Assembly (NCBI GenBank): GCA_964187785.1 | Contig: OZ076409.1 | Location: 31,064,001 to 31,128,000 of the forward strand | Reading direction: 5' to 3' | Length of the DNA stretch: 64,000 bases | Source: Amphiscolops sp. MND2022 | Lineage: Eukaryota | Part shown: piece after piece, positions 1-52,747 of the stretch | How the letters are laid out: each line of letters starts with the position of its first letter | Numbering within the stretch: the stretch's first letter is position 1 | Made by a program: the position numbers and the translations under genes | The notes under the pieces: generated by a model | Databases searched by the model: none | What the model saw: the letters and a program-made list of their open reading frames with translations, nothing else | What the model was told of the DNA's origin: nothing

Positions 1-612
1 CGTTTTCCATGAAAGTACGAATGAAACTTTCCTCAAGCCAAATGCAGCCATGTATGTGGGCCATACCACGAAGTTGCCATTTCCACGCGATAAGTGAAGT
101 ACATCACAGGAATAGCTCCGTCATATTCTGCTAGCACGATTGTCCTAATGAAACACTGAACTCTTTTGTTGAAGACGCGAGTAACTTGGACCACATGTTT
201 GCGAAGAATCTCTGATCTTGAAATATGCTTCCGAGCAATAAATTCTTCGAATGGAATTCCATCAATAAAAACGCTATTCACAACTCCATCATCACAGAAT
301 TGCCGCTGGAAAGAAATCTGATGACCCAACGACTTTAGAATGCTAATGGACACTTCCGGCCAACGGGATTCAGCGCAAGAAAGAGTGAAAAACATGAAAA
401 GGACCCAACTGTTTAATTTTTGCCAACATTTCCGATCGCGCAACTCTCCAGTATTGACTGGTACCTCGAAGACGTTGAAACACTGACTGAACGTCAGTTT
501 GATTTACGCCATATAACCCATCACCTTGCACTCCAACTATCCCTTTCCTCAAAAAAAGGTCGCAACTTTTCTCTAGTTGTTCTCTCTCAACTCTTTGCTG
601 TGCTGCAAACAA
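1..612 (-). pseudogene. Helitron/Helentron RepHel, Rep (HUH endonuclease) region, frameshifted; runs off window start
   Basis: Stitched frames read LRGTSQYW...EMLAKIKQLGP / FFTLSCAESRWPE ... YFTYRVE / WQLRGMAHIHGCIWL. These are Rep motif 1 and the HUH (H-I-H) motif 2 typical of Helitron Rep. There are at least two frameshifts. Confidence 0.9.
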
Positions 613-1900
613 ATACGTTCCAATTTATTTCGGACAGACATTGCAGGCATTTTACCATTCTTTAACGACTTCGAGCATGCCCAGCACACGTGAAGAGTCT
701 TCTCTGGATTGCTGCTATACAATTTCTGTTCAGGCAACAAAATATCATCATCGTAATTCTTCCATTCCCGCACACATTCCTCGAAAAGCACCCTTTCATA
801 ACTAGAACAAACGAAAATCAATCCTGGAATCATTTGACTTCGAAAACAAAGTTGAGAGGCAAATGTTGGCATCAATTGCTCGAATTCACGAAGTATTGAT
901 TGCTCCTTTTCAAAAGTGTTTCCATTCTGGAGGACATGGGATTTTATAGCTTTTAATTGTTTGACCTGAATGCCACGTTTCGGCATATTACGGTACTTTT
1001 CAGCGAGCTGACTTCTCAAAGTTGTTTTGTACTTTTCTTTCAATTGCACTCTCAGATAAGCTCGATAATTCTCCTTCAGCTGTGATTCCAATACTTCAGT
1101 GTGTTTCTGTTTCAATCGCATTCGAAGATGATCTTTGTAACGACGTCTCAGCTTGAAGGCCAACTGTGACTTGTATTTCATCTGTAGAACTTCTTTCAGC
1201 TGCAGTTTGTATTTCATTTGCATCTGCTCTTTCAACTGGAATTTGTATTTCTTTTGCATCCATTCTCTCAATTCCAGCTGGTATTTCAACTTCATACGTT
1301 CTTTCAGTTGCATTTTGTATTTCAACTTCATACGTTCTTTCAGGTGCATTTTGTACTTCAACTTCAAACGGTCTTGCATCTGCATTCTGTATTTCAATTG
1401 TAAAGGTTCTTTAATCGAAGTTTGATATAATTGTTTTCTTTTTTCTCTCGTTTTTCTGTAGTAGGTCTGATTTTTTTTCAAAACTGGTTCCTTTCCATTA
1501 ATTTTCCTTTCCACTTGAGATTGACTTCGTATCCAGTTATTAAACGCGCTGTAGTATACTTTACAGGTGCTTCGAGAAAAATGTGCTTTCGCGTTTTTCT
1601 GATCCGTGAAAATTGAACCGCAGGAAACACACGGTTTGCTGAGGGATTCTTCGAAACTTTCGGCAAAATTGAGGGACTCACTATTAGGCGTTGTGATGCA
1701 GCGAGTGGCATCTACCTTTCCACATTTCGTTCGTTTCCTGTGTCTAGCGAGATGTGACTCAATGAAAAAAACTTTGCGACAAGACGGGCAAATCCATGAA
1801 GATTGAGTGCTGTGAGGATTGAGAGAACTCGCAGAACATGACCAATTTTGATCGTCCGAGTGAGCTTGCGAGAGACCAAATGATTCAGGACCGTTTATCA
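573..1900 (-). pseudogene. N-terminal part of the Helentron RepHel: two C2H2-like fingers, 12-aa K/Q/E repeat, pre-Rep Cys motifs
   Basis: ORF 573..2093 contains CPSCRKVF..HLARH and CVSCGSIF..KAH, then (KYKxQLKExMxL)n, then FVCSS.ERVLF and HVCWACSKSLKNGKMPAMSVRNKL. The last resembles the CxxC..GKxP..N motif ahead of Rep in Helentron-type proteins. Confidence 0.7.
1150..1410. repeat. 36-bp coding tandem repeat (~7 copies)
   Basis: Recurrent ttgtatttcaacttcatacgttctttcag-like units; the protein period is 12 aa (LKYKMQLKERMK). Confidence 0.85.
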
Positions 1901-2610
1901 AGTACATTGAAGGGGAGGCCATGGGGGAGACAAGCATCATGCATGATAGATCGATAGAAGTTACTCGATGAGCAGTCGTTGTGGAACTGTTGACTTTCGT
2001 ATGAGTAATTGTTAAGGCAGAAATCGATTTGGAGTTCTCCCTGATCAGAAAGAACGAAGCAGTCAATGATACTAGCTGGTATTTCCACAACAAATCCTTT
2101 TATTCCTGGGTACATGAACTTATTGAAAAGAAACTGAGTGTGACAATCCACAGAGCTGAAGCCAACGGGGGTTCCCATTACATGTGTGTGAATCCATCCC
2201 AAAACTTTCCCATGGAGACATAGTTTGTTCAAAAAGACAGATGAATCCATTCCGTCGATTCTTAAACATTCAAATTTTTCTCGTTCTCAAAAAGCGAGAG
2301 TATATGATCCGAAGCATACAGTAAGCTAAGCATTAGGGTTCTGTTCTAAACGTTCTCAAGTAGACAAATTTATGAAGAAACAATGCGAAACGTTTTGAAA
2401 CTTACCAATGTCTTCGACGTGAGTGTAAGACGCTGATTGACAGGGCAGGACCATATCTGTGACAATCTCAGTAGCACCATTTTCCTTCCCTACAAAGAAG
2501 GCCAGTAACTCGATATTGTTACCTTTCTCGTCAACGGTTGCAACCGATAAATTCAGGAAACGGATGAAATGTTCATGTGGAAGACAGAACATAGATCTAA
2601 AAGAGAGCAA
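1885..2610 (-). pseudogene. JAMM/MPN+ (AMSH/STAMBP-like) metallo-deubiquitinase domain, two exons, co-linear with RepHel
   Basis: Exon 1 is LPHEHFIRFL..NIELLAFFVGK..VTDMVLPCQ, with a GTAAG donor at 2405. Exon 2 is VLGWIHTH..FSSVDCHTQ, matching the JAMM E...HxH-x7-S-x2-D pattern. The acceptor near 2261 is out of phase or mutated. Confidence 0.75.
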
Positions 2611-2700
2611 TTTCTTGAGAACGATTCACTGAATCTTCATGTGAAAACTGAAAGGAACAGTGTAAACGTTTTTTGTTACTCGGAGGAGCAATAAAAACTC

Positions 2701-3070
2701 TATTCCAGACAAAAACTGAATACACTAATCAAATTCTGTTAGTCTTACAGCATGACATGCAGTATTAAACAAAACATCAAACTAATTTCAACCGAAACCT
2801 ACTTTGAGCGCACGCGAACAATTTGAACTCAAAAGCTGGTGATAAAGATGACACAAATTGTAAAAGCAGACAATGCAAATTGTTAAAGCAGCAATTTAAA
2901 AAAAATAATCCAGATAAAAACTGAATACATTAAAACAAATTGTTAGTCATACATCATTACATGCAGTATTAGACAACACATCAACAAACTAATTTCAACC
3001 GAAACCTAATTTGAGCTCACGCGGAGCGTTTGAGCTCAGACAGACAATGCAAATTGTTAAAGCACCAATT
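2701..3070. repeat. Local imperfect ~200-bp direct duplication
   Basis: ccaga.aaaaactgaatacac...acatgcagtatta...aaactaatttcaaccgaaaccta...cagacaatgcaaattgttaaagca occurs at ~2704-2890 and ~2909-3064. Confidence 0.85.
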
Positions 3071-3152
3071 TTCAACAAGTAAACTGACCGACTCTGGAAA
3101 GTAATTTAAACCGAGCAAGAAACCCTCCATGAATACCAAATTTTGGGAGATA

Positions 3153-3859
3153 TCAGTCCAATCTAAAGGCAGCAAACTTGTTGATGACGCTTTCAAGTAT
3201 TAAAAAGTTCAAATTATAGTTCGACAAAGGGTCGTAAAAGTTATCAGCGCAGTAAAAGAGAAACGGAACTTCGCAGTAATTGTAAGAACCGTTCGTAGAA
3301 TTCTCCAAAAGAAGTTCGTTTGTTTTTTCGAGTTCCGCGAAACAACTGTCATCTGATGGACGTATCAGAACAACAATGTGGACAAGTTCAACTTTGTGAC
3401 GCATAAAATCTGCTAAACGTTGAAGTTGCTTATACACCTGGAAAAGAAAAGCTATAACATAATTTCAAAGAAATAGTTACTGAGCAAAAATTTCAACTAT
3501 ATCTTGAAAACAAGTTGGTAATATCCGATCCGAACACGTTAGATATAACCGAAAGATGCTATGAGTTCAAATAAAATAAATCACATGAGAAAAAACGTTC
3601 GAAGAACTCTTGCAATTAGTAAAAAACATTGAAAAACAGGGCTTAAACCCGATTTCCTGGTCTCGGTCTCTCCACCCCAAAATTTGAGGTCGTTACCGTC
3701 GATAAGAAAAATAATGTGGTCATACTGAGCATTTCGCAGTGTCCGCAGCAGTTTTCTTATAGCGTAATCATCGGTGCGTGCTGAATCAAAAACACGAACA
3801 TCAGTTGAAGGCAATACAAAACCTTCAGCCATAGAATCAGCAATGAGTAAAACTTTCAT
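3153..3859 (-). CDS. SGNH/GDSL hydrolase-like gene 1 (two exons; probably catalytically degenerate)
   Basis: Exon 1 is MKVLLIADSM..IIFLIDGNDL (block I and III like). Exon 2 starts after a ttttccag acceptor at 3437 (VYKQLQRL...). The donor is uncertain and there is no clear DxxH in block V. Confidence 0.6.
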
Positions 3860-6733
3860 CAGGAAATTCAAATTGGAACTGAAAAGATTAAATAAATACA
3901 AAATCTCGTTGAAAATTCAAGTCACCGCCAAAATTTGCCATCATATTACTCTAAAGTGATTGAAACTAATGCACAACGAAAAACTGAATATGTTCAAAAT
4001 AGTGCGGACGTTTAAAAGCTAGTTGACAAAAAGACTAGCGTAGATAAACTACTGCTATTTTCAAAAAACTCCCTCAATATTTTGCACAAAAGGTTTCCGC
4101 AAACATTTTAGAAAATAGAAACATTATGATTACTGAAAAGAGTTGAGGTAAAAAAACAAATTCAGGTAAAACAATAACAACGCAATTCAGTTGATTTAAT
4201 ACAACAATTAATTTTTACCAGGTAGAAATTAACTTGATCAAAATCAGTATTTGAAAAAATTTGAAGGTTTGTAGTGTTATTTTTGGTACAAGAAAAACCA
4301 ACTAAACAGGCGTCGCAAATGAAAGGTGTGGCGTAGGCTTTGCAAAAAGAACAAGGAAACATCGAAAATCATTTGGTCAGTTGCAGGAAGAGTGCCAGAT
4401 GTAAGAACACCACGCGATGCATTTGGTATTCCACAAGAACCATTATTGAGCACACGACGAACAAACAACACCACGCGGAGCTTTTGGTGTCGTTGTATAT
4501 TATTTTGATAGATAGGTTCGTTCCAGAGAGAAAGTTGTACGCAAACTAGGAATCAGCTTCAAAACAACAAGAAAGGTCACAATTCACAGATAAAAACTGA
4601 ATACACCAAAAAAATTAAACAACACAATGAACAAACTAATTTAAAATGTAAACGTTACAAAAGGAATAAAAGCAGCTGCGTAAGCGATTCTTTGAACCAT
4701 GTTCTTTATGAAGAACGCTACCAATTCCGCAAAAATTCTACTAAAAGAAACGTAAAAGCGGCAAAACCGAACGTACGTAACAAAAGCATCAACTCATGCT
4801 GCTTGTAATTGACTAACTTTTACATGTTTTAGTGATCACTATCACTTGTGAAGAATTCTTTATAGAGATTGCTTCTCCTGTTTCGGGACGATTTTCGGAT
4901 TTTCTCTGTGAAACATTCCGCTATCTTGGATTTCTCAACACCCTGTTCGGAAACAGGAAGTTGAACTCTTCCTGCAGCTTATTGATTTTGTTCAACATCA
5001 GGTATGGTGCAATGGAGTTCATTCGGGACAATTTCGTTCCCTTTTTCAATATCATCGTGATCTTCTTCTATAATGGGCAAGGCCGCAATAGCGTCGTCTA
5101 CAGAGCTGCCTCCAAAAGAAGCGTAGGATATATTATCAGTAGCAACAGTTCCGAATGTGGAGGTGGAGCAGGCACGTATTGTGCCTTTAGCTTTTCTCGA
5201 CCAGGCACATGTTCTGTCTTTTTTCTTCTTCGAGGTTGCAACAGAACCAGAATTAGGCGTGACAACCGTTTCTCGTTTACTAATTTGTGGTGTCTTTGAG
5301 CTTTTGCCGGATAACAATTTTTTTGAACGAAGAATTTGGAGTGCTCTCAATCGATTTATTTCAGAGCGACTGGAGGACTGATTATTCGAAGATTCGATTT
5401 CTAGCCTGTTTTTCACTCGAGCAGCTGTGTTTTTAGCATGGGACATTGCTCTATCGATGCCAGACAGCAGCAGTTTCTCACCATCGAAAAGAGCTGGACA
5501 GTCTTTAACACGAGACGATGTGGGTCGCTCTATAATGGCATTCCTGAAAAGCGCTCTGGCTGTAAAGAAATATCGTGCATTGTCTCAAGTTCATTGAGCA
5601 GTTTTGAGACAATTGATCGGTCGGCGGTACTATGAACTGCAGCCATGTCAGCACTCTAAAACGTAACCGAACTGTAGGAGGAATTGCACAATAATTCAAT
5701 TTGAAGAATCACGGAAATGACAAAAAACTAATATGATCGATTGCGCAATTTGAAATCGTTGTAAAAAAATAGAGTGATTGTTCATTGTAAACGTATTCAT
5801 TCTCGAACGACTGGTTTGATAGTGAAAAAACTGCGATACGCGATTAAGAATTTTCTGCGATTGCGCCATTTCTGGAGAAACAAACGAAAACCTTGTAATT
5901 CATTACTTGACAAACGAAAGTAGAATATTTTTCCATGCCTTCGTTGGATATGCCTTCTCATGAGCACTATTGAATGGTCATCAACGTTGTAACACAGCCT
6001 CAATAAAATGTCCGTGATACTTATAATAATTGTATTTAAGTCTCTATTGACGACAGCTAACAAAAAAGTTTCGACTTGAAACATTTGTACGCCGCCGTTG
6101 AAAATTGAATGCACTTGCTAAAGCTTGCAATGAAAAAATGACGAAACAACAAAAATGTTCAAAAACGTTTTCCAGATTGATATAATTGAGGCATTATTCT
6201 AAACCATATTTTTCAACCAGCACACGCGAAGCATTTGGCCAGTCAATCAATACGCTCAGAAAATTGCCGGAAGTTGCTAACAAACCAAGTATCAAAAAAC
6301 TGCCTCTTTTCGAAAAAAAAGCGAAAGCAAATAATCGTTAATCGACAACTTGATATACACAAAACTAATCAAAACCTATTTGTTGTAAATCATCAACAAC
6401 AGCTCAACAAAACATGCAGGCGAATTCAAAATGTATCAATTGTAATCAGTAATAATAATAATTGTAATCATAAAAAAATAATAAATGATCAAACACACAA
6501 GTGCTCAACAAAAAAGACAGTGAAGTCCAAATGTAACAATTGTTACCAATAACTCTCAAACAACAATAGAATATAAAAAAAACACAATGCTAACCAAAAC
6601 AAGGCAGTGAAATCCAAATTCCAACTGAACCAAATGTTACCAATGTTTTTAAGTGAAAATTATCAAAAACTCCGCACCAATCAAGTTTTGTCTTTCTGAA
6701 ACCTGTTATTTGCACACAACAGTGCTTCAACTT

Positions 6734-7604
6734 TCAATGTCCCTCACTAATCGGGCTTTTCCCATGGTTCTTAATCATGAGTACTTTCTCGTGAATCAAG
6801 CGGGTGAATTGACGACATCCTCGTTCATTGATATGTACTCCGTCAACGTTCAATAAAAATTTTGTGTTCCCACTGAAATAATTCCCAATCCCGACATATC
6901 TATAGGTTTGTTTCAAACAACCTAACTCCTCGGGTTGTTGAATGAATGTGGAGATTGTCTCTGAAAATTCTTCGGTTTCACCAGGTGAATCTGAACTGTA
7001 CCATCTACGGGGTAGTCCGATGACAAACAAAGCAATTCCGTAATTTGCGTTTAGAGATTCAGTCAGGTCATCCACACGATCGATCACCTAAACTTTTACC
7101 AATTGCAAAATAAGGGGAGCAATCTATTTCAAAACTCAAAGGGAACTACGAACCGTAACCGGTCATCCATATTTATGTTTTATAATGATGGTAACATGTG
7201 TCAAATTATAATACGCACAATCATCAATCAGCACACGCGGAGCATTTGGCCAGTCAATCATCATGCTCAAACATGCTAAAAAGTGAAAACTTTGAAAGAC
7301 TTACTGTCAACGTTGACTCTACAATGTCTGCTTTCCAATCATGGAGGTTGTTACCTCCTAGCAGTAGACACACCTTAATGTAGTTTTCGATTTTCTCATC
7401 CATCATTTTCAGGTATTCAGCAATGTCCTGGACGCGGGCGCCCGCTATCGAAACACAATCATATCGTTGGTTGTTTATGTCTTTGAGGAGACTACTCCCC
7501 ACCACCAGCGTCTCATTCGAATTGTCCTTAGACATCCATTGCCGTACCCGAAAAGACTTTGAGCCAATTTGGCTGTAAGTGATCGTTTCAACCATATCAG
7601 ACAT
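6734..7604 (-). CDS. SGNH/GDSL hydrolase gene 2, intact, join(7604..7305,7087..6734), ~217 aa
   Basis: Motifs are VVGSSLL (block I Ser), IAGARV (II), LLLGGNNL (III) and DGVHINERG (V). A canonical phase-0 GTAAGT...TTTAG intron at 7304-7088 joins ESTLT|VIDRV in frame. Confidence 0.8.
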
Positions 7605-8204
7605 CTTAAAATAGAATATGAATGTTAAAGCCAAATAGTAATTTGAATCAATGTAGGTAGAAACATCTGATAATGCTATTGAGTGGAACACCTAAAAACG
7701 CACGATTCGAACTAATCAAAAAGAAAACGCAAAAAGGAAACCATTAAGTAATATATGATTTTTGAACTGATAAGTGAGACAACCATTAGGAAATACCATT
7801 TGTTAAGCAATAAAAAAATCATTCATCATAAACTAAGAAGCTCAGTTTGGAGAAGCAATAAACAATCGGTCCTTAATTAGTTTTTATTTGCCTCACCGCC
7901 CCTTGAGGCAGATCTACACCTTTTGCCTCGGGTTGACATTCGCAACCGTCAGCGAGGTCCATGGAACCCCCTCTGAAAAGAACAGGGCCAAGAAAAAATA
8001 CTTACCTTTTGCAATTATTTCGGGGTCCCGACTGTAGACGTAGCTTTCACTAAACATACTTCAACGCGTTTATGTTAATAGAAAAATTTTGAACAAGGTA
8101 GAAACGGTTCAATACTGAAAATTTTTATTTTTAACATTCTCGAAAATTGCTCTCAAATGTCTACTTTCAGGTGTCATCAGTCCATCATTTCTGCTTCCAA
8201 CGTC

Positions 8205-8765
8205 TCCAAACATATCTAAGGCTCAAAAATAGCAAAAGGACTTCAATGTGTCAAGTACTCTCCTCTACAGTACCCGAAAAAAAACTCAAAAGGACTTCAA
8301 TGTGTCAAGTACTCTCCTCTACAGTACCCGAAAAAAATTTCCAAAATTTTCTTGAATTTTGTTGAAGTTTCTGGTAAGTCGCATTGTGCCGAAAAATGTG
8401 AAAGGGGCCCTTTGGGAGTTTTTCAACATCCATTCATTTGCAAAATAGAAAAAAATGAAGGGTGGACCCTTTGGAGACATTTTTTAAAAAAAATTAAAAT
8501 TGTGCGAAAAAAGTCTCACAAAGCGGAAAAAAAGCTGCTCAAAAAAGTTTTGGTCAAGGGCGGGACTCGGAACCATGTCCTTCCGCTTGGCAGACCTCAA
8601 AAAGTCGTAACCTCTATGCCAAATGCCAGTGACGTAGTGTGGCACTGTTTAGTGTTAGTGCCGTTAGTGCCGGTCAACTTATAGAACTTATAAAATCTGT
8701 CAGTTCGTTGGTCTTAAAAAAAGTCACTACTATAGTCTGCGTTTTTCTACGAAAAGCGCCGACCG
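8205..8765 (+). mobile_element. Non-autonomous interspersed repeat (HINE/DINE-like), copy 1
   Basis: Shares catatctaaggct.aaaaatagcaaaaggact...cagtacccgaaaa and the 3' hairpin tagtctgcgttttt-ctac-gaaaagcgc.gac with the inverted copy at 49870-50238. It has an internal ~54-bp duplication at 8233-8336. Confidence 0.7.
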
Positions 8766-8769: not shown

Positions 8770-10330
8770 TAGAAGTCGTTACTCACAATACTACACAGGT
8801 ACTGGAGCCACATCACACCAGAATCTATTACCAAAACATCTCGTACGAGAATTTCTCGAAGCCTCACATGGTCCCAATTGGAGCCATCCATGCATTACGA
8901 AGATGGTACATTTATAATACTTGGTACCCATGTTTCGCTGAAAACATCAAAAAATGGGTGAGAGTCAAACGTGTATACAAAACACACGAATCAACAATGG
9001 CCTTCGCCGAACTGAGTTCTTCAAGTGTCCAGATTGGGAACTAGGTCCGAAGAACATACTGCAGATGGATGTCCTCATAAATGTCCCACCTAGCGGGAGT
9101 ATGACCTCATCATAACAGCCAATGTTGTCTTTTCTCGATGCCTGTTAGCATATCCAGTAACACGCAATACTGCAACTGCGATGGCGCGAGAAATTTTGCA
9201 CATTTTACGCAAACATACACACCTTCCTGCAACTATAATCATAGACCTTAAGTAACCCATGAAGTTGCAGCAGTCCTTGGAATTGAGCTAAAACATGCTA
9301 CCATGAAGCATACTCAAAAGACAGGACTTTCCGATAGAACACATGCTTCAGTGAAAACATCTTATGCTGATACGGGGGAAAGTGGAAACAATTGGTAGAA
9401 ATTTCTCCCCTTAGCAGTCCTCAATTACAATGCAACATACCTTGCATCTATTGGTTGTGAACCCTCACTAGTTTTCGATGGTAGAATACCACAGAACGTA
9501 CTTGACTACAAACTCGGATATAACCTCAATCCTAGATACCACTCGCAAACAGATGTTGCAGGGAAAGTGCGAAGAAGAATGGAGGTACTTCTTTACCAAA
9601 CGAAGAAGAATATAGCGCGAATATATCTCAAATACGAAGTCTATTGTGATAGAAAAGCAAAAACCACTGACTTAGAAACAAACGACTTTTGCTACATACT
9701 AAATCCGAAAGGAGATACACAAGCTACAAAACTCCCATTTCGGGAATTAAGATAACTCGGACCATACAAGATTGAAATGGTCCTACCCAATAACAATTAC
9801 ATAGTTAGAAAGTTAGGAACTAACATGACACAACTACTACACTGAATCTGTTTGCAAAATTTCAGTCAACAAGGGCCTCTTGCAGAAATTTTCGTCCGTG
9901 AAACACATTGGCAGAAAGATGCTCAAATGCCATAGCGCATTTGGTACCTATTTGCTCAAACATGGAATACAAATTTCAGTCCTAACCTTTTTGAATATAC
10001 TCTTCCAGATTATTCTTTAAAAAATTGAAGATACAGAATGCGTACCTATCGAAATACTAGAAAATGACCACATACTTTCCGTGAAATTTCAAAAAATAGC
10101 GGGTAAGCTCATTGTAACAAACCACTGAACCCGAAAGAGAAAACGAGGATGAAATTACCCAAGAAACACACGATATCAAATTAGTTACTCAAAAACCCCA
10201 TGAAGACAGAAACACACAGCAGAAAAACAAACCCAAAAAAACTCCAGAAAACTATCAACTTACCCCGTTGCAAGAAAATTCCTTAAATACTCGTGGTGAA
10301 AAATACACATACGACCCATCCCAACCCAAA
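8770..10330 (+). pseudogene. Decayed Ty3/Gypsy pol 3' region (integrase and C-terminal tail)
   Basis: Fragments LLPKHLVREFLEASHG..HPCITKM, ELGPKNILQMDV, FLPLAVLNYN..SIGCEPSLVFDGRIP and LGPYKIE, with many stops and frameshifts. Confidence 0.75.
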
Positions 10331-10747
10331 TGTCTTCCATGTACTCACACTCATCCAGTTACTAATAACAAACTCCAAACTAAAGCCATCTTTTCCTCTT
10401 CTCTTCGTTCTGACCTTTTGCAGAACGTTTTTCTCGCTTGCCCAACTATGCATATTTGAAATAGGTACACACAACTGCAGAGAGCATAAAAGAATGAGTA
10501 GATACTTTACCAGTAATACAAAATTCCCATCGGAAGTTTAATACAAGAAGTCTAATTCCTTTTCATTTTGCTGGACTTTGTGCTTTTGGATACATTAGCA
10601 CTGTTAGCTGTAATTGGTTGTGATGGCGACACACGAAGGGAACGACAGCAATGAACATGATTTGCAATTTTAAGAGGGGTATATTTTTTCACCGGGGAAC
10701 GTCTAGGCGATTTCCGGGTTGATCCGAGTTCAACTGAAGCAAAATCG

Positions 10748-11350
10748 TTAGCTACTGAAAAGGAAACAGAAGCATACTGTCGTAAGCTTGGTCTGTGGGT
10801 TCACATTAGAACGACCACGGATGGGCTCACTTTGTGAATTATCTCTAGACTTACCACAGCGGTTGTCTTCGGTATCAATTTCCGGTCTCTCGGCCAGAAC
10901 GTTCCATCTGTTTTGTGTCAAGTGGCCTGATCCGGACCTTAAAGCATTCTGGATTTGGGGCAAAGTTTGATTACTAATTGCATCACTAATAGCCCTTTGG
11001 ATCTGCATATTGACACTGGGCATCATCTCGTCCATTTTCCTAGTCAATCTCGAGTTCAACTCACTTGATAATCTATTGTTCTCAGCGTTTAAATTTTCAC
11101 TGGCTGAATTGTGTCCCGGAACTGCATTGTTACCGAATCCCATGTCTTTATGATTCGAATATATGTTCTCATTGTTGTTTCCAAACGTGTTACTGTTGGC
11201 ACTTTCAGGTCTTCTGACCGAATTGCTATTAACACTTTCCTCTCTCTCAGAATGTCTCTCACCTAACATTATGTCTAGATTATCGATGTCTGAAAGTATT
11301 TCAAGCCATCTAGACTTTCTAGCTTTCTTCTGCTTTCTAGGGTTAGGCAT
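10748..11350 (-). CDS. Antisense ORF (200 aa, N/S-rich, predicted coiled-coil) downstream of Gypsy pol, copy 1
   Basis: Open ORF MPNPRKQKKARKSR...; lies antisense to the pol remnant. Confidence 0.5.
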   Translation of the reverse strand: MPNPRKQKKARKSRWLEILSDIDNLDIMLGERHSEREESVNSNSVRRPESANSNTFGNNNENIYSNHKDMGFGNNAVPGHNSASENLNAENNRLSSELNSRLTRKMDEMMPSVNMQIQRAISDAISNQTLPQIQNALRSGSGHLTQNRWNVLAERPEIDTEDNRCGKSRDNSQSEPIRGRSNVNPQTKLTTVCFCFLFSS

Positions 11351-13779
11351 TGAAGAGATCCGAGCATGAACAGTTGAATTGTTTCTTTTCGGAAAATCGA
11401 TTTTTGAACGGTAGAACGATTAACAAAACTTGTGTCTTCCTCAGAAGGGTAATGACTATATATACTCTCCCAAAGATGACATACGCATTTTTTTACATTT
11501 TTCAGAGTATCAGATGCAAGTAACTAACTTGAAACATGTGATATTAAGGATATTTCACGTTCTTAAAAATCATATGACGATCGTCTTTAAAGTGTGTCAA
11601 AGTTTACACCGTGACATCAAACAAGCTGTATTTCATCAACAAAGCATTCATCTCAAGAATATCAACAAATGACTTCAAATATTACAAATATGCAATGTTG
11701 GCACGTGCCACCACGCGAACACTGCTGATTTCAACTAAACCTCATTACGATACATATCCTCGCAAGCAAATTCCCAGATCTTGCGACTTGCATTAGTAAC
11801 CAATCACAGTGAGTTACTATTATAAGTACAGTTTCACACTTTTCTCATATTACACCAAGTGATAATTAGTTACACTGAATGACTAAAATTCGCTAATTGA
11901 CTGGTTTACGCTATCAGGTTTATATTATCAGGCTGAGAATATATGAATACATGTACAGGCTATAGCGTAGGGCTATGGCCTAATCCGGATAATTAATTTA
12001 ACATTGCAACAGTTATGGTATTCAGGGTTAATCTAATTTAGTACGGAATTTTTTGCACCTTACACAATTTGGACAGAATGGGCTATTTGCCTCAAATTAA
12101 ATAAGCACCACCAAACTAAAGGTAAATGGTCTTAATCGGCAAGTAATACTAGGTCTGGGGTATTTCGCTAACTACTACACGGAAACGTTTATTTAACGAG
12201 TAGAACATAAGCACATAAGTATTGAATAATTATAAGCATAATTAACCTCATAATCACATCTTTACATGAAACGACCGGAACCGGCCATTTGACTGAATTG
12301 TTAGTCAAAAGTAGAGGAGTTGCGTCAATTGGCCTTGTTCGGCCATTAATGAATGAAAGTACAAATAAAGCAACAAGTTGTGAAATCTGATTGGACGCGA
12401 CTGCGTGCTCAAGTGACTCAAGTGAAATTTCTCCCCTTAGCAGTCCTCAATTACAATACAACATACCTTGCATCTATTGGTTGTGAACCCTCACTAGTTT
12501 TCGATGGTAGAATACCACAGAACGTACTTGACTACAAACTCGGATATAACCTCAATCCTAGATACCACTCGCAAACAGATGTTGCAGGGAAAGTGCGAAG
12601 AAGAATGGAGGTACTTCTTTACCAAACGGAGAAGAATATAGTGCGAATATATCTCAAAGACGAAGTCTATTGTGATAGAAAAGCAAAAACCGCTGACTTA
12701 AAAACAAACGACTTTTGCTACATACTAAATCCGAAAGGAGATACACAAGCTACAAAACTCCCATTTCGGGAATTAAGATAACTCGGACCATACAAGATTG
12801 AAATGGTCCTACCCAATAACAATTACATAGTTAGAAAGTTAGGAACTAACATGACACAACTTTTACACTGAATCTGTTTGCAAAATTTCAGTCAACAAGG
12901 GCCTCTTGCCGAAATTATCGTCCGTGAAACACATTGGCAGAAAGATGCTCAAATGCCCATAGCGCATTTGGTACCTATTTGCTCAAACATGGAATACAAA
13001 TTTCAGTCCTAACCTTTTTGAATATACTCTTCCAGATTATTCTTTAAAAAATAGAAGATACAGAATGCGTACCCATCGAAATACTAGAAAATGACCACAT
13101 ACCTTCCGTGAAATTTCAAAGAATAGCGGGTAAGCTCATTGTAACAAACCACTGAACCCGAAAGAGAAAACGAGGATGAAATTACCCAAGAAACACACGA
13201 TATCAAATTAGTTACTCAAAAACCCCATGAAGACAAAAACACACAGCAGAAAAACAAACCCAAAAAAACTCCAGAAAACTATCAACTTACCCCGTTGCAA
13301 GAAAATTCCATAAATACTCGTGGTGAAAAATACACATACGACCTCATCCCAACCCAAATGTCTTCCATGTACTCACACTCATCCAGTTACTAAAAACAAA
13401 CTCCAAACTAAAGCCATCTTTTCCTCTTCTCTTCGTTCTGACCTTTTGCAGAACGTTTTTTTCGCTTGCCCAACTACGCATATTTACAATAGGTACACAC
13501 AACTGCAGAGAGCATAAAACAATGAGTAGATACTTTACCAGTAATACAAAATTCCCATCGGAAGTTTAATACAAGAAGTCTAATTCCTTTTCATTTTGCT
13601 GGACTTTGTGCTTTTGGATACATCAGCGTTGTTAGCTGTATTTGGTTGTGACGGCGACACACGAAGGGAACGGCAGCAATGAACATGATTTCCAATTTTA
13701 ACAGGGGTATATTTTTTCACCGGGGAACGTCTAGGCGATTTCCGGGTTGATCCGAGTTCAAATGAAGCAAAATTGTTAG

Positions 13780-14379
13780 CTACTGAAAAGGAAACAGAAG
13801 CATACTGTCGTAAGCTTGGTTTGTGGGTTCAACATTAGAACGACCACGGATGGGCTCACTTTGTGAATTATCTCTAGACTTACCACAGCGGTTGTCTTCG
13901 GTATCAATTTCCGGTCTCTCGGTCAGAACGTTCCATCTGTTTTGTGTCAAGTGGCCTGATCCGGGCCTTAAAGCATTCTGGATTTGGGTCAAAATTTGAT
14001 TACTAATTGCATCACTAATAGCCCTTTGGATCTGCATATTGACACTGGTCATCATCTCGTCCATTTTTCTAGTCAATCTCGAGTTAAATTCACTTGATAA
14101 TCTATTGTTCTCAGCGTTTAAATTTTCACTGGCTGAATTGTGTCCCGGAACTGCATTGTTACCGAATCCCATGTCTTTATGATTCGAATATATGTTCTCA
14201 TTGTTGTTTCCAAACGTGTTACTGTTGGCACTTCCAGGTCTTCTGACCGAATTGCTATTAACACTTTCCTCTCTCTCAGAATGTCTCTCACCTAACATTA
14301 TGTCTAGATTATCGATGTCTGAAAGTATTTCAAGCCATCTAGACTTTCTAGCTTTCTTCTGCTTTCTAGGGTTAGGCAT
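13780..14379 (-). CDS. Antisense ORF, copy 2 (199 aa)
   Basis: Near-identical to 10748..11350; part of the tandem duplication. Confidence 0.5.
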   Translation of the reverse strand: MPNPRKQKKARKSRWLEILSDIDNLDIMLGERHSEREESVNSNSVRRPGSANSNTFGNNNENIYSNHKDMGFGNNAVPGHNSASENLNAENNRLSSEFNSRLTRKMDEMMTSVNMQIQRAISDAISNQILTQIQNALRPGSGHLTQNRWNVLTERPEIDTEDNRCGKSRDNSQSEPIRGRSNVEPTNQAYDSMLLFPFQ

Positions 14380-17300
14380 TGAAGAGATCCGAGCATGAAC
14401 AGTTGAATTGTTTCTATTCGGAAAATTGATTTTTGAACGGTAGAACGATTTACAAAACTTGTGTCTTCCTCAGAAGGGTAATGACTATATATACTCTCTC
14501 AAAGATGACATACGAATTTTTTACATTTTTCAGAGTATCAGATGCAAATAACAAACTTGAAACATGTGATATTAAGGATATTTCACGTTCTTAAAAATCA
14601 TATGACGATCGTCTTCAAAGTGTGTCAAAGTTTACACCGTGACATCAAACAAGCTGTATTTCATCAAGAAAGCAGTCATCTCAAAAATATCAACAAATGA
14701 CTTCAAATATTACAAATATGCAATGTTGGCACGTGCCACCACGCGAACACTGCTGATTTCAACTAAACCTCATTACGATACATGCAAATTCCCAGATCTT
14801 GCGACTTGCATTAGTAACCAATCACAAAGAGTTACTATTATAAGTACAGTTTTACACTTTTCTCATATTACACCAAGTGATAATTAGTTACACTGAATGA
14901 CTAAAATTCGCTAATTGACTGGTTTACACTATCAGGTTTACATTATCAGGCTGAGAATATATGAATACATGTACAGGCTAGCGTAGGGCTATGGCCTAAT
15001 CCGGATAATTAATCTAACATTGCAACAGTTATGGTATTCAGGGTTAATCTAATTTAGTACGGATATATTTGCACCTTACACAATTTGGACAGAATGGGCT
15101 ATTTGCCTCAAATTAAATAAACACCACCAAACTAAAGATAAATGGTCTTAATCGGCAAGTAATACTAGGTCTGGGGTATTTCGCTAACTACTGCACGGAA
15201 ACGTTTATTTAACGAGTAGAACATAAGCACATAAGTATTGAATAATTATAAGCATAATTAACCTCATAATCACATCTTTACATGAAACGACCGGAACCGG
15301 CCATTTGACTGAATTGTTAGTCAAAAGTAGAGGAGTTGCGTCAATTGGCCTTGTTCGGCCATTAATGAATGAAAGTATAAATAAAGCAACAAGTGGTGAA
15401 ATCTGATTGGACGCGACTGCGTGCTCAAGTGACTTTTCCGGAATAGCACTCTACATCACTTGAACACGTTTCCTTTGCTGGCTTACAGTTGTGTACAACT
15501 TGCATCAATCTAATTTACATTCACTGTGTCTTTTGACAAATTCTAACAACTTGATTTGGATTTATCAAATCGTACATTTAACAGACTAATATTTAAACCA
15601 TTTCATAACACATGGGTATTACAAAGTTGTATTGAAATAAAATCAATTTAACTATGAGTTCGCCTAAATGTTTGTTAATTCTTAACTTCAATAGGCTGGT
15701 AGGGTTCCGGGTACGAAGTTCTGACCTTCAGCAGATGTCGTCACAGTTGTACCGTCACAGGCGGCAGCCTGCGACACATACCTGAATCGGTTACCTGGCA
15801 GTTACTGTTCGAAAATAGCCTGGAACCAAACATAGAGAACAGAAGTAGTAGAGCCGTTTCCGTTTAGAACAAAACCGGAAGCGAAAAGCCTCAAAACAAT
15901 TCGGAAGTTGATCGGAATATATTTGGGTTGATTTCTCTTACTAGCCTGAACAGCTATGCAATTTGAAAATTTGTGATCACAAAAAAAATTCAAATTCAAA
16001 ACTAATCCAAACCAAAACAAAACGGAACTCACCAGGAGAAGATTCAGTGTGAGATTTATGCCCATTAGAAGTGCACCTACATGAAATTTGATCCTTACGA
16101 CTTTTCTTTCCATTGAACCCCTATGTGACAACAGTAAACCAGAAATCATTACAAGGCACCCGACGCGAGTGGATAACAAATAATGAGAATAGCCAAATAC
16201 TCAAGAATTGAAGACAATTGGAATGTGTTGTTACAAATATAAACAATTTCCATTACAATTATTTTACATACAATGCGTTATTAGATGAAAAGACGGAACA
16301 TACTGAATTAACTAACAAAACTGAATGAAAGAGACTGTCTTATGAGAAGCAACGGAACTCTCAGAAATGGCAGGAAACTATGGTGAAAGATTCAAAGGCA
16401 TGGTTTACGAAGTACAGGCAAAAGCAAATGAATTGCGGAAGTACAATATGGCGAGAATTGAGCTCAGATCCGGTTAAATTGGTTAAATAACTGCCAGTCA
16501 CTACTGCCAGAGTTGCTGATTACATGATTGACACTAATGAGACTTAGCATACACCCTGCGTTCTTAAGTGATCGCCACCCGGCGTAGTTTAGCGGAAATG
16601 TGGTGGCTGATATGCCGCAAAAGATAACTTTTAAATAATATGCGGCATCATGGGCATTTACTACAAACGCCTTTACCACATGCGATTCTACGTCATCAAG
16701 CGGATCTGCCACAATTGTGTGTACAACGACAAGCGGACCTGTCAAAGACATAAATGTTATACAGTGTCATATACATTTTTTGATCGACAAAAGAAACGTG
16801 ATTCATCTGTGAAGTGTTTCCGATGTGTTGTTTGATTTTGAAACATATTATGATGTTTTGAAATATGAATTCGAAATGTTACATGAACAACCATCATGAA
16901 AACGTTGAATAAAAAGGTATTAATGCACTGTTTAAATGAGGACCTCCATTATATTATCATGTGTGGTCATTATCCTGGCAAGGAGACGAGAGCTTAGAAA
17001 TCTTTTCAATTGGTAATATATTCTACAGTGGTAACGCACTTTGCAAGTGGGGTACCTCTGTGAAAGAAAATTGTAGACAATGTTGCTGCATTGATAACCC
17101 TAAAACATTCGTGTTTTTCCGAATCGGACTTTGTTTTGTTGAAAACAAGAGAAGAGAGAAAGAAGAGAGAAGTTAATTTCCCCATTACCGCGGGGTGGAC
17201 GCCGAATAAGCAGTTCTGCTTTTCTAAGTCGGCGCCCTTTCGGATACTATCTCCCCATGGCAAGCTATGGTACCATATTTGCAGCCAAGTGGTCAAGTAA

Positions 17301-21381: not shown

Positions 21382-22081
21382 GTAGGAACTAAATTCAAGA
21401 GCAAATTTTTATTCTAACGTCTTATCTCATTCGCACCGATCGATCAATCATTCGAGCCCCCTACATTTTTTGGAACAAATATTTTATATCACTTCTTATA
21501 TATGTTAAAGTAAACCAAATCGTTGCGCATTGAATGTGAAGCGATTGATATCTGTGCATTATGCAATTTTCACTTTCTAGGGGAAGCGAGCTGTTGCCAC
21601 TTGTATGGTCTTATCATTTTAACCATTCGTCGACTAACGTAACCATTCATAAAAATTAACATATCGTCGACTGATTGTGTACAATTGATCATACTGTGCA
21701 ACAGGGGTGTGATATTGACGGCGAAGGCGGTAGCGTTAGATACCATTCGGCATGAATTAGCAATAGCGATAGTTACCCACAAATTGAGGCGTTTGCGAAA
21801 ATGATAACTGGGGAACTTTTACAGAAGTAAAACGCTCATCAAAACTATTGATCATACTCCCCTCAACTACGGCATTCCATGAGGCATTATTGTCAAAATA
21901 TAAACTTCTCAATGCAGTCTCCAGGAGCATTCTTTTATACTAACACAGCTGAAGAGTGTTGGTCACAAATGCTGTCATTTCCATATACGCCAATGTCAAT
22001 TCCATATACGCCATTCTGCTGAAAAATATTGGTCCATGGGTGCGGTGCCATTAGGACATTGACAATTTTGATCCAGAAAGT

Positions 22082-23689
22082 TTTTGCTGCCTTACAGAAA
22101 GTAGCTTCGGCCCAAGGCGAACTAGACTTTGCAGAAGGTTTCAAAATTTGTTACTTCCAAAGTACATTACGGAAATTCAAATGAATATCTTGAAAATCAG
22201 TTTTTTTTAAAAGAAAAATTAGTGATAGCGTTAGCGGACTCATTTTGTTGTAGCGATAGCCATTAAATCGAGCCATTAGCCGATTAGCAGTCAGTAGTAG
22301 GAGAAATCCCGTTCCTGATATAAAAAAAATTTAAGTTCGTAAAATCATTAAAATTAGTCATTTTCACAAAATATCAATCAAATCATTAAAATTAAGCATC
22401 TTTTTCAAGGCAAATCATCAAAAATTAGCCAATTTTCACTACTAAAAAATAACATAAAAATCGATGAACAAAATTTGTCAAAAACTTTGTCACAAGGAAA
22501 AATTCACTAACCTCCATTACGCATTCGGTATGCGAAGCTGCTCTACGCAAAGCGCCTTCGGTATGCGAAGCCAGGTTTACTGTGAATGGTAAAGCTGTGA
22601 ATTTTGCTGTGAATGGTGTGTAGCAAAATTTTTTGGAACGAAAATAGCATTCAAGTGGAAACAAGTGTATGGTATTAATATAAAACTGGAATAACATCAA
22701 GTGGAACGTCACATGCCAACGGCGCTTCGCATGCCAAAGGCGCTTCGTATGTTGAATTTTTCGAGACAAATGAATTTTCCGAGACAAATGAAAAAACCCA
22801 TACAAAAATCTCAAACTTTAAAAAAACCGATACGAAAATCTCAAACTTTAAAAAACCGACACAAAAATCTCAAACTTTGAAAAACCCATACATATATCTC
22901 GGAAAAATGTTCAAATCCATATATGGAAAATTTTTATTCCTGATATTAATACATGGGAAAAAATAATTTAGACAAAATTCACAGAAACAAAAGTTGTAGC
23001 TAATCAAGTGTTACACATATTTCGTTACTGAGTGTTTTCTATAGAATCAACCCACTAATTACCAGGTGCCAAAACAGGTGGGAGAAAACGGGTTTTCCCC
23101 AATTTCTTGAGACTGACTCATTCCAGCGCAATGACACAGGAGATCAAAATTGTTGACAAAAACAAGATACACTGTTTTCAAAAAGAAAGGTTTCTGTATC
23201 TTGGACCCACTGATTACCACCTGCCCCAACAGGTGTGAAAAATTGGTTTTTCTCGAAATTGGTTGGAGTAAGACAGTTGTAAATTAGGTCCACTCTCATA
23301 TGTGATCTTTCTTATGGTATACTCAGCTTGTATGTGACCCGACAGGTGTTGAGATCAGGGTTGACCTTGAAACTTGCAAGATCAAAGGAACTCGCTCAAC
23401 CGTTAGTTTTAGCGTGATGACTCATGGGACCTAAAATGTAGGGCGTCAGAAAATAAGTCTCCCCACCAAATTTCATTTCAGTACTGAAAACCCACTGATT
23501 ACCACCTGCCCCAACAGGTGTGAAAAATGGGTTTTTCTCGAAAATGGTTGGAGTAAGACTAGTAACAGTTGTAAATTAGGTCCACTCTCATATATGATTT
23601 TTATTATGGTATACTCAGCTTGTATGTGACCCGAACAGGTGTTGATATCAGGGTTGACCTTGAAACTTGCAAGATCAAAGGAACTCGCT
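22082..23689. repeat. Tandem duplicate (offset 1621 bp) of host flank + TSD + Polinton left end
   Basis: 22082-23398 matches 23703-24988, including gcagtc|AGTAGTAGGAGAAATCCCG at 22293 and at 23914. Confidence 0.9.
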
Positions 23690-48586: not shown

Positions 48587-49869
48587 TTATTAGTTATTTT
48601 TTCATGAACTGTTTGTTCAAAAAGTATCATGAAATTAATATTTGTGTAATGAAAATTTATGCGCATCGACTTTTATGTTGTTATTTTTTGGTGGTGAAAA
48701 AGGCTAATTTTTGATGATTTGCCTTGAAAAAAATGCCTAATTTTAATGACTTGATTGATATTTTGTGAAAATGACTAATTTTATTGATTTCACGAACTTA
48801 ATTTTTTTGTTTCTGTTGTCTGTTAATTTTTAGTTGTGAAAAAATGGTACTTTTGATGATATATTTGGAAAAATATCTGTTTTAACTGTTTGTTTGAAAA
48901 AATATGCTTAATTTTGCTGATTTTTATATCAGGATTTGGAAAAATACCTGTTTGAACTGTTTGTTCGAAAAAATATGCTTAATTTTGATGATTTTTGTAT
49001 CAGGAACGGGAATTATCCTACTACTGCAGTCACACCTCTGGTGTGCTATTACGCGGAGTTTTCTGTACTTGGGGTATTTATTATAAGACTGGTGGCATAC
49101 ATAAAATATGATAAGGATTTTGGTCTCTGGCGTGCAGTACTGCGTCATGTGATGGTTTAACAGGTTTTAACATTCAATAGGTTCAAGGTTGATTTCGTCG
49201 AGAAAAAATTAAGTTATTCAAAGCGTCGAAAGAATTCCATATCAGCGAATATTTTCATATTGGTTGATTGACTCGCCCTATCTTCAAAACCATCCATTGG
49301 TAAAGAAATGGCACGTCGCTCCGCTTCGCTTCGCTCCTGCATTTAGGTCACTATGGGTATGTGAGCATAGTTGATTACTTTATCGTAATTAGTTCGCCGC
49401 TTGTGCTGTATTCATTTTACTGGAAATTAATTGGCTTACTGGAATTTAAATGAAATTTTAGTCACGTGCCCATGATACACAGTGGTTATAAATTTTTCTC
49501 CATTCTGAGTATTGATTATTTTGCAAGTTAGTCAAATGAAGTCAACTGTCATCACAAGGGTATATAAATTGAACATAAATTGACAGTTTCCGGGCATGGT
49601 GTTCTTACGCCTGTTTTGTTATTTCTTTTCAGTCGTGACATCAACAGATAATGTTTAACATAAGAGCCTTTTGTGATATGTCCCGAAAGGAACAAATCAT
49701 TTCACAGACTGTAAAATCGTACACTGGAAACCGTATACCTTCCTCTTGCGCATTTGAGAATGAAAGTTTCCCCAAATCACAGTTTTCAGTCACTTGAAAA
49801 ATTTCAAGTTGTAGTTCGGTTTGTCTATTGACAATTTGTTAATCACTGATCACATGAATTGATTGTTTA

Positions 49870-52488: not shown

Positions 52489-52679
52489 TGTAGAGAGTAC
52501 AGACAATTAACTTAATTAGTCTATAAACTGTCTACTACATTTGTAATTGATGTTCTTTTATTTAAATACCTGCCACTTAAGCGCAGATGATCTACCATCA
52601 GAAAGCTTGTATAGTAAGCTAGAAAACAATTGAGTTTTGTACTGAGATATTTCTTTAACCGTAAAGCTAGATTACAACA
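52489..52679 (+). repeat. 5' LTR
   Basis: Direct repeat of 58360-58550. Confidence 0.97.
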
Positions 52680-52691: not shown

Positions 52692-52747
52692 AATAGCGTT
52701 CAAGCTATACACGATTCACACCAAAGAAGAGAAAGTAACCATTCAAT

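Follow-up and report, generated by a model that had tools for sequence, protein, structure and literature searches.

In teleost fish, intron-containing SGNH genes of the texim type lie upstream of Helitron coding sequence (Tomaszkiewicz et al. 2014, PMC4021074); in the accessible part of that report the genes are multicopy and related to CR1 ORF1 esterases, their association with Helitrons is found in fish only, and both readings of texim, as a transposon aid or as a hitch-hiking fertility gene, are left open. An esterase of this kind from CR1/L2-type LINEs, ZfL2-1 ORF1p (PDB 4c1b; Schneider et al. 2013, PMC3905857), is described in the available text as a slow carboxylesterase that binds acidic membranes. 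HLE2 elements or Helentrons, in turn, carry a ubiquitin-type protease domain (OTU, VTD/Herpes_teg_N, UCH or Peptidase_C48) upstream of Rep, together with Helitron_like_N and a zinc-finger N-terminus (PMC11417382, PMC9741609); protection of transposition proteins has been suggested for the OTU and VTD deubiquitinases (PMC9741609), and DUF6570 upstream of Rep is an HLE2/Helentron marker, with neither JAB/MPN nor Lipase_GDSL/SGNH present in Table S11 as available (PMC11417382). Both SGNH-plus-Helitron and Helentron deubiquitinases are hence already known, and the undescribed element subgroup that a first-pass annotation had suspected from SGNH genes beside a Helitron-type Rep loses its novelty to texim in that respect.

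The window analyzed here, 64,000 nucleotides from Amphiscolops sp. MND2022 that form a nest of unrelated insertions, shares with the texim-Helitrons an intron-containing, multicopy SGNH gene with CR1-type kinship upstream of Helitron coding sequence, the comparison being made with the description of texim rather than with Texim sequence. As far as texim is described in the accessible text (PMC4021074), teximYa/b have 15 exons whereas each SGNH gene here has two coding exons; a second copy lacking part of the catalytic set, a repeated hairpin and a JAMM ORF are further features of the present locus. All of the open reading frames named in the first-pass annotation were present at about the positions assigned to them there, on the minus strand and co-oriented with JAMM and Rep.

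The upstream gene, SGNH-A (7604-6734, minus strand), was found to have the intact catalytic set and clean intron earlier ascribed to it, since its two exons splice across a 217-nt intron, without any frame break, into a protein of 217 aa having GSS, G, GGNN and DGVH. Exon 1 (7305..7604, 100 aa) starts with the ATG at 7604, right behind a pyrimidine-rich AG, and comprises a predicted N-terminal beta-hairpin followed by blocks I-III (GSS, G, GGNN); the predicted GT-AG intron (7088..7304) contains one copy of the hairpin, and exon 2 (6734..7087, 117 aa) supplies DGVH as the catalytic Asp/His block. The Ser of block I, Gly of block II, Asn of block III and Asp-x-x-His of the last block all align with LINE ORF1 esterases, and the spliced protein matched a profile of three LINE-ORF1-type esterase domains at E 1.8e-15 (in a database of 6 sequences). 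Neither exon alone gave a direct Pfam match, and Lipase_GDSL_2 was matched weakly by 3 of 17 aligned family members. Continuation into exon-2 sequence was seen for 0 of 13 family representatives; a second contig holds a 99% identical copy of exon 2.

The closest outside relatives found were the ORF1 proteins of two complete LINEs (L001 and L002; 31-36% on exon 1), and the only two confirmed metagenome loci with relatives of SGNH-A were both complete retroelements with ORF1 (esterase) and ORF2 (endonuclease-RT). When the predicted exon-1 model was compared with known structures, 4c1b was the only one of 50 rows titled as an SGNH protein, at a Z of 5.6 that tied with alpha/beta hydrolases, and the model aligned to its residues 132-200, stopping at the published half-domain hinge R200. 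Foldseek returned nothing for this model at E 0.001 or better, and no SGNH was found among PDB sequences with a family-only profile. A further match to 4c1b, obtained with alignment A7, was discarded as circular because LINE proteins are part of that alignment. An exon-1 SGNH tree, with no Texim sequence among its taxa, was mostly unresolved with long branches, and we therefore claim no donor from it. A word-based search for exon 1 within longer proteins gave 0 of 206 candidates at E 0.01 or better, which is weak evidence on fused forms, and viral and prokaryote contigs contained relatives of neither SGNH-A nor Rep. The assignment of SGNH-A to the LINE-ORF1 type of esterase is supported by the two metagenome loci and the presence of 4c1b among the structure matches. 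SGNH-A shares with ZfL2-1 the SGNH fold and catalytic set; however, it is a stand-alone gene with an intron and without PHD, coiled coil, zinc knuckle or ORF2 (no RT/endonuclease ORF was found in 2.6-9.4 kb), it has the additional predicted beta-hairpin, and the residue corresponding, counted from block III, to H191, termed 'transposon-specific' in the published text as available (PMC3905857), is Leu.

The second gene, SGNH-B (3153..3859, minus strand), has an exon 1 from ATG 3859, an intron of ~211 nt and an exon 2 at 3437-3153, with the likeliest donor (3648) and the acceptor (3437) in different phases. It scored 21.0 bits against the LINE-ORF1-type esterase profile, compared with 6.6 for the best of 500 shuffles, and its alignment contains Ser and Asn, but exon 2 lacks the Asp-x-x-His block and thereby the catalytic His. 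The earlier description as a second intron-containing SGNH hydrolase thus holds for its SGNH-like nature and not for its intron or its catalysis, as the gene in its encoded form is not an active hydrolase.

Among the smaller frames, the CxxC-x8-CxxC ORF (4162..4362, minus strand, 66 aa, 41% T) is unsupported as a gene and likely due to chance: the sequence around it is T-rich and intergenic-like, shuffling of the region yields an ATG-initiated frame of 66 aa or longer in 38% of cases, Pfam gave no significant match, and its exact sequence was absent from the protein collection. ORF 5797-6114 likewise did not stand up as a gene, with 95 aa or more in 7% of region shuffles, no significant Pfam match and protein-like stretches that change frame across the ORF. 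ORF 4979-5446 proved to be the middle of a longer broken orphan gene, here called X (4829..5869, minus strand), whose frame stays open from 5584 up to a premature TAA (4981-4979) and continues beyond it to about 4829. Gene X has a frameshift near 5530, a basic low-complexity middle and a coding-like T content (0.21-0.30) from 5700 to 4801; an Atlas search gave no usable match for it. Codon usage lacked the power to settle the status of any ORF, known exons failing the test too. What had been called a virus-like multi-gene cassette therefore retains two or three cargo genes, but the term was overstated, with one of them catalytically incomplete and the cassette smaller and more decayed than presumed.

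Downstream of the cassette, an AMSH/STAMBP-like JAMM ORF (1885..2640, minus strand) has two exons with the motif E...HTH-x8-SxxD, a stop at codon 5 and an out-of-phase intron. It matched Pfam JAB at E 2.7e-4, and the best PDB matches of exon 2 were AMSH/STAMBP (E 0.003-0.006, STAMBP at E 0.003) with HTH and SSVD aligned; the motif Glu was placed by inspection in exon 1, which alone had no PDB match. The motif has one residue more than the canonical EXnHS/THX7SXXD given for JAMM/MPN+ metalloproteases in the available text (PMC300881), with eight rather than the seven residues of AMSH/STAMBP from the second His to Ser. No MIT or other AMSH domains were seen, the present copy is broken, a paralogue (P0026) has lost the first His, and the predicted structure was unusable (pLDDT 33). 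Next to this ORF lies the N-terminus of RepHel (573..1940, minus strand), with two C2H2-type fingers, frameshifted acidic repeats and a CxxC stretch that we take to resemble the start of DUF6570, for which there was no Pfam match upstream of Rep in either this copy or its relatives. That stretch joins the Rep region directly, through an apparent internal deletion in which at least ~100 codons of the relative P0030 are missing near 625. Rep itself (33..624, minus strand) is spread over three frames and runs off the window start, beyond which the PIF1 helicase that Helitron-like elements have in this ORF, the AP endonuclease at the C-terminus of HLE2 proteins and the other element end would lie. 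Its own match to Helitron_like_N (E 0.0017) fell below the Pfam cut-off, whereas 4 of 4 relatives exceeded it (29.3-45.9 bits vs 28.9), and the residues of the HUH motif are visible across frames, so that by its sequence it belongs with the HUH Reps of Helitron-like elements. The RepHel of the first-pass annotation was accordingly recovered with its JAMM, C2H2 and Rep parts, but with Rep frameshifted, internally deleted and lacking a helicase within the window. Sequencing error is an unlikely cause of the Rep C-terminal frameshift, the JAMM stop or the state of the SGNH-B donor region, because these lesions recur in a second contig. In comparison with the Helentrons as described in the accessible text (PMC11417382, PMC9741609), the protease upstream of Helitron_like_N and the zinc-finger N-terminus are alike, but here a metalloenzyme of the JAMM type takes the place of the protease. 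Neither a JAMM-type Helentron deubiquitinase nor the hairpin was found in the open-access literature searched.

This predicted RNA hairpin occurs in six copies with a 15-nt core and variable yet self-complementary flanks, all on the coding strand. In the direction of transcription the first lies in the SGNH-A intron and the last 170 nt short of the JAMM ATG, with none elsewhere in the 64 kb above E 0.5. Numbered against the direction of transcription, hairpins 1 and 2 (cores 2811-2825 and 3018-3032) lie in a tandem spacer module of ~205 nt (2684..3046), the units of which (2684-2831 vs 2887-3038) are 82% alike and have a 30-nt block in common with 4587-4616. Hairpins 3 (4397..4439, core 4411-4425) and 4 (4458..4500, core 4472-4486) follow. 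Hairpin 5 (6209..6251, core 6223-6237) is in the U-rich spacer after SGNH-A, within a 46-nt repeat 89% identical to the intron copy, and hairpin 6 (7220..7262, core 7234-7248), having the weakest stem, is that intron copy. Flank pairing was not a selection criterion for the copies; the native matching of 5' and 3' flanks nonetheless ranked first among 720 permutations, and in each of 4 subsets it ranked first among 24. Five of the six stems were in the top 2.4% of background windows of the same geometry, with hairpin 6 not above background (22%). The coding-strand fold was better for 5/6, with 1-5 G-U pairs each, and folding with DNA parameters was weak (-0.7 to -9.4 kcal/mol), its strand bias not seen in all copies. 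Two copy pairs arose by plain duplication, leaving only about three independent stem lineages, between which 1-7 of 14 flank positions are identical. A 55%-identical paralogue, P0004, retains the motif in its intron read-through (20/21 bases compatible, 0/2000 shuffles), whereas the motif is marginal in the tail of P0010 (42/2000 shuffles) and is absent from 6 of 8 tested tails, three of them of at most 11 aa and one of 28 aa. Rfam gave three chance-level matches on 2-9 kb, none over hairpins and none reaching the gathering threshold of a family. Two hairpins may resemble U1 snRNA stem-loop II, but U1 was absent among those matches. An intronic C/D snoRNA, considered from box-like words in the SGNH-A intron, was dropped for want of Rfam support and a terminal box D, and a 23-nt hairpin pattern gave, in 596 Gb, no viral match and one within an ordinary bacterial gene, taken as chance.

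The SGNH-A family amounted to 22 proteins over 21 contigs (cluster representatives). Being dispersed, multicopy and kin to LINE ORF1 esterases, SGNH-A is not the single-copy host gene that the first-pass annotation had allowed for. Five near-identical copies (P0007 type) on 5 contigs of 120 kb-1.4 Mb all kept the intron, which points to movement as DNA. JAMM and Rep occur together on another contig (P0026 and P0031, 449,975 nt). The sole contig with all parts (294,597 nt) is 98-100% identical with lesions in common; it probably represents this very locus from a different haplotype or assembly, and was not counted as an independent copy. Between the end of the spacer module (2684) and the JAMM acceptor (2647) there are only 37 nt, too few for a separate promoter or terminus. 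An acceptor-like AG within 20 nt before the ATG was present at 3/3 gene starts (A, B and JAMM, the last not fixed by homology) vs 33/119 ATGs of the region; the lack of AATAAA in the spacers was not significant (P 0.25). Of the Helentron hallmarks, which comprise subterminal inverted repeats, a 3' stem-loop and insertion between T and T, no 5' terminus or subterminal repeat was recognized at 7.6-8.25 kb, with only short AT-rich or 7-bp inverted repeats seen. It is likely that the cassette is linked to Rep. Against this, the hairpins nearest JAMM could be the 3' UTR of SGNH-B, in which case they would unite the cassette but not connect it to Rep.

Counting co-orientation, contiguity, hairpins on the coding strand only, their flank pairing, the dispersed intron-keeping copies, the acceptor-before-ATG layout and the precedents in favor of a single element, we consider it slightly more likely than not that the locus is the left part of one large decayed Helentron-type (HLE2-like) element with LINE-ORF1-derived esterase cargo and a long, hairpin-regulated transcript. 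Such an element, containing the cassette, likely acquired its esterase from a LINE ORF1, with a probable duplication of the gene afterwards. A promoter near 8.0-8.2 kb would yield a long pre-mRNA expressing the esterase, the orphan gene, the dead esterase and JAMM-Rep, with the acceptor before each ATG selecting the gene through cis-splicing from a leader or trans-splicing. The hairpin would be a candidate site for one binding protein acting on splicing, stability or translation, and thereby also on whether the SGNH-A intron is retained. By analogy with ZfL2-1, SGNH-A might help germline localization of element products, possibly with SGNH-B as a non-catalytic partner, and JAMM may shield transposition proteins from ubiquitin-driven removal, as proposed for OTU/VTD in Helentrons.

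That the SGNH cassette is instead a separate non-autonomous mobile unit, or a segmentally amplified LINE-ORF1-derived host family, which landed 5' of a JAMM-Helentron with the hairpins as its own UTR or intron elements, is a possibility we regard as less likely. It would fit with the unrelated insertions nested throughout the window, with all six hairpins lying in or just behind cassette genes, and with texim-like genes without Helitrons in amphioxus, sea urchin and Oikopleura, as given in the accessible text (PMC4021074). Furthermore, 0 of 5 contigs with diverged Rep/JAMM relatives matched any of the 21 SGNH-family contigs, but this comparison of cluster representatives was underpowered, the window's own exon-1 protein also being unlisted among those visible. 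Against this reading, the cassette encodes no transposase, shares strand and acceptor-before-ATG layout with JAMM, and is separated from its acceptor by those mere 37 nt.

The hairpins could also be read as acting in DNA. Rep origins have a conserved loop with a variable stem, and the copies, mostly between genes, might be old termini or Rep-recognition stem-loops on a Helitron with cargo, left by successive end-bypass capture. As stated in the accessible text, Helentrons end in stem-loops and RepHel may be in minus orientation (PMC4067079), and the scenario is possible if RepHel is reversed relative to the element ends. We find this unlikely, as the stems rely on coding-strand G-U pairs and fold weakly, with no uniform strand bias, under DNA parameters, and a paralogue conserves the intron position of one copy. 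Even less likely, in our view, is a duplicated promoter or enhancer, or neutral spacer, with a promoter for each gene and incidental stems: plain duplication of two copy pairs, CACGCG/CGCGTG in the core and the empty Rfam result would agree with it, but the flanks differ between lineages while each pairs best with its own partner, and all copies are on one strand. Beyond the single Helentron-type element as such, we rate as improbable a more far-reaching version, a new Helentron lineage organized like a small DNA virus, in which an active LINE-derived and a dead esterase, the orphan gene and JAMM-RepHel, each with its own acceptor on one transcript, would be under the joint control of cis-regulatory RNA hairpins of a new class. 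Retention of the hairpin-bearing intron would then give exactly the first esterase half-domain. The dead SGNH domain of Oskar binds RNA, and the hairpin might similarly be bound by an element protein such as the dead SGNH.

Should the linkage hold, rolling-circle elements outside fish have also acquired an SGNH esterase, apparently directly from LINE ORF1, and this would favor esterases as general transposon aids over texim as a hitch-hiking fertility gene. JAMM would likewise add a metalloprotease class to the cysteine deubiquitinases of Helentrons, supporting a recurrent need for deubiquitination, and the hairpin is a candidate for post-transcriptional control of several Helitron genes. The present copy is dead and serves to point towards intact relatives, of which the five near-identical copies of the P0007 type are examples.

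The upstream SGNH (esterase-type) gene, SGNH-A, starts at 7604 on the minus strand and contains a 217-nt GT-AG intron (7304–7088), predicted splicing of which gives a 217-aa product carrying GSS, G, GGNN and DGVH, thereby upholding the intact S/D/H and clean intron of the first-pass annotation. A phmmer search of 1.84 billion representatives gave 16 matches at E 0.001 or better, comprising 13 exon-1-type proteins (35–75% identity), two LINE-ORF1-like proteins and one spurious repeat. Exon-2 sequence followed in none of the 13 exon-1-type relatives, consistent with an intron common to the family. Including 90% clusters, the family held 22 proteins on 21 contigs, 12 of those >100 kb, so that SGNH-A was not a single-copy host gene, an outcome that the annotation had allowed for. 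One cluster, of P0007 type, had five copies on five contigs, with the exon 99–100% identical and intron read-through agreeing at 42–44 of 44. Since the window's own SGNH locus was found on two contigs only, this points to true amplification at several loci with the intron retained, and suggests that the family is mobile as DNA.

SGNH-A scored 45.9 bits against a profile from three LINE-type esterase domains, and likely descends from a LINE ORF1 esterase, on two grounds. Among 56 metagenome candidates for SGNH-A relatives, two were confirmed as loci (L001, 2–4450, and L002, 1–5014, of metagenome contigs), both apparently complete LINEs with the esterase in ORF1 and an intact ORF2 that reads as endonuclease plus reverse transcriptase; Cys/His knuckles are found at the C-terminal end of both ORF1s, with a weak PHD match in that of L001. 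The model of SGNH-A exon 1 (pLDDT 77), moreover, aligned to residues 132–200 of 4c1b, the esterase structure of the LINE ZfL2-1, at a Z of 5.6 that tied with many alpha/beta hydrolases, and stopped at the half-domain hinge of that esterase, as described in excerpts of PMC3905857. The same excerpts report membrane binding and slow ester hydrolysis for the ZfL2-1 esterase, and no binding to oligo-A RNA. The SGNH tree did not resolve a LINE-ORF1 origin.

The cassette is real yet decayed. SGNH-B (3859–3153, minus strand), previously annotated as a second SGNH hydrolase, is indeed SGNH-like (21.0 bits against the LINE-type esterase profile; best of 500 shuffles 6.6), but the most plausible donor is not in phase with the acceptor and the Asp-x-x-His block is absent. 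An ORF proposed at 4979–5446 exists, but merely as part of one broken orphan gene between SGNH-A and SGNH-B (gene X, about 5869–4829, minus strand), which matched nothing in Pfam or the Atlas, whereas a CxxC ORF (4162–4362) and an ORF at 5797–6114 fell to chance level, being equalled in 38% and 7% of shuffles, respectively. Two candidate short introns with strong GT...AG were seen on the minus strand, at 7973–8005 (33 nt) and 5872–5906 (35 nt), one of them within what is presumably the leader of the cassette. The U-rich spacer 3′ of SGNH-A holds imperfect tandem repeats of ~100 nt each (6396–6644, minus strand), unlike the hairpin family described next.

That family, absent from the first-pass account of the cassette, has a 15-nt core, CAAANGCNNCGCGTG, in six copies (2811, 3018, 4411, 4472, 6223 and 7234), five exact and one with two mismatches. 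Its pattern gave 8 matches in the 64-kb window versus 1.7 expected, a partly circular comparison as the pattern was derived from these copies; a covariance model gave no extra copy above E 0.5 in the window, and Rfam gave no match. Non-circular evidence is provided by flank self-pairing: the flanks vary between lineages, yet pairing with the own partner was the best of 720 permutations, and also ranked first of 24 in each of four subsets from which duplicate pairs had been left out, with only about three independent stem lineages among the six hairpins. Five of the six stems ranked within the top 2.4% of background windows, the intron copy being at 22%. RNA folding was better on the coding strand for five of six, via G-U pairs. 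That the hairpins are ssDNA termini is unlikely, their DNA folding being weak, and we give still less credence to a DNA motif with incidental stems, considering that the varied flanks pair best with their own partners and that all six copies lie on the coding strand. With regards to relatives, intron read-through of P0004, an SGNH-A exon-1 family protein, had 20 of 21 motif bases compatible at about equal donor distance (0 of 2000 shuffles), that of P0010, of the same family, matched marginally (42 of 2000), and six of eight paralogue tails examined had nothing of the motif.

Downstream of the cassette lies the AMSH-like JAMM ORF (Pfam JAB, E 2.7e-4; STAMBP, E 0.003), with two C2H2-type fingers between it and Rep. 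The RepHel annotated there stands as Rep, but frameshifted and internally shortened, lacking at least about 100 codons that its relative P0030 has, and with the helicase outside the window; this copy of the element cannot be autonomous. At 1885–2099 (minus strand), 71 open codons of the zinc-finger/Rep frame overlap the JAMM ORF end, and the two frames may be fused via frameshift or splice, or be two overlapping ORFs. As a diverged JAMM (P0026, 65%) and a diverged Rep (P0031) lie on apparently one 449,975-base contig, JAMM-Rep is a recurrent unit.

Linkage of the cassette to this unit was judged via protein searches together with matching, by length, of the contigs carrying the relatives. Cassette, JAMM and Rep are all on one strand, with no foreign repeat from 7.6 kb to Rep and with 37 nt from the last spacer module to the JAMM acceptor. 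A 30-nt block is common to the spacers after gene X and before JAMM, with a score of 45 that was reached by none of 200 shuffles, the next best across 484 control windows being 30. None of five contigs with diverged Rep/JAMM relatives was among the 21 SGNH contigs, a weak comparison covering cluster representatives only and missing the window's own exon-1 protein. A 294,597-base contig, probably the window's locus again, carries SGNH-A exon 2, SGNH-B exon 1, JAMM and Rep at 98–100% with identical lesions, showing that the lesions are real. No element terminus was recognised; Helentron end structures are described in part of PMC4067079. Judged from sequence, the cassette is rather probably Helitron cargo, while its being a separate unit inserted upstream is a less probable but substantial alternative. 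Upstream, the cassette is bounded by a dispersed non-coding repeat at 8211–8763, also present on the opposite strand at 49870–50234 (blocks 81–93% identical); the read-through end of P0031 runs into similar sequence, indicating a common insertion in this genome.

SGNH genes 5′ of Helitrons were already published in fish (PMC4021074, in part), and Helitrons rarely capture full-length genes according to the relevant portion of PMC6431247. For Helitron-like elements, deubiquitinase-type domains noted in excerpts of PMC11417382 include OTU, Herpes_teg_N, UCH and Peptidase_C48; its whole Table S11 contains neither a JAB/MPN nor an SGNH domain, and a literature search on Helitron/Helentron with JAMM found no linking paper, the lone co-occurrence being a general sentence. 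What would distinguish the present element is that two LINE-type esterases, JAMM and a hairpin of no catalogued family occur together, putatively linked to Rep.

A pyrimidine-rich AG lies ≤20 nt 5′ of the ATG in all three of SGNH-A, SGNH-B and JAMM, as against 33 of the region's 119 ATGs, and this layout is absent at the three orphan ATGs of the first-pass annotation. Together with the U-rich spacers lacking AATAAA (an absence that is not significant), it would fit one transcript split by splicing. Most likely, a Helentron-type element would have taken up a LINE esterase, which was then duplicated within the element, with the element genes regulated via the repeated RNA hairpin. By analogy with ZfL2-1, the esterase might bind membranes and slowly hydrolyse esters (PMC3905857, in part), and JAMM might shield transposition proteins, as suggested for VTD/OTU of Helentrons in a section of PMC9741609.

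With its introns and abundant repeats the window is eukaryotic and probably animal DNA, judging by LINE-, Gypsy- and Polinton-like sequence and by the neighbours found in the Atlas, which come from arthropods, chordates and molluscs. A 3.0-kb tandem duplication (9398–12418 and 12424–15434, 97% identity) carries a Ser/Asn-rich ORF of 223–229 aa, and its other strand shows integrase-like sequence in degraded form. Another, of about 1.5 kb (22079–25131, 95%), contains further repeats of 200 bp and shares a piece of 160 bp with 48650–48808. The AT-rich stretch at 25900–48600 (GC about 29%) consists of tandem frameshifted units, 94–97% identical, whose ORFs we take by eye to be a family B polymerase, packaging ATPase, integrase and capsid proteins, and thus Polinton/adintovirus-like. 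An intact Gypsy-type LTR element (52488–58551) with a single 1880-aa ORF (52739–58381) has identical 193-bp direct repeats on either side, indicating very recent insertion. A tandem array at 60306–62159 (period about 84 bp, 72–79% between units) has a repetitive open frame of 231 aa, and apparently interrupted exons with a GPMFSGKT motif, presumably resembling thymidine kinase 1, are found at 62175–62891.
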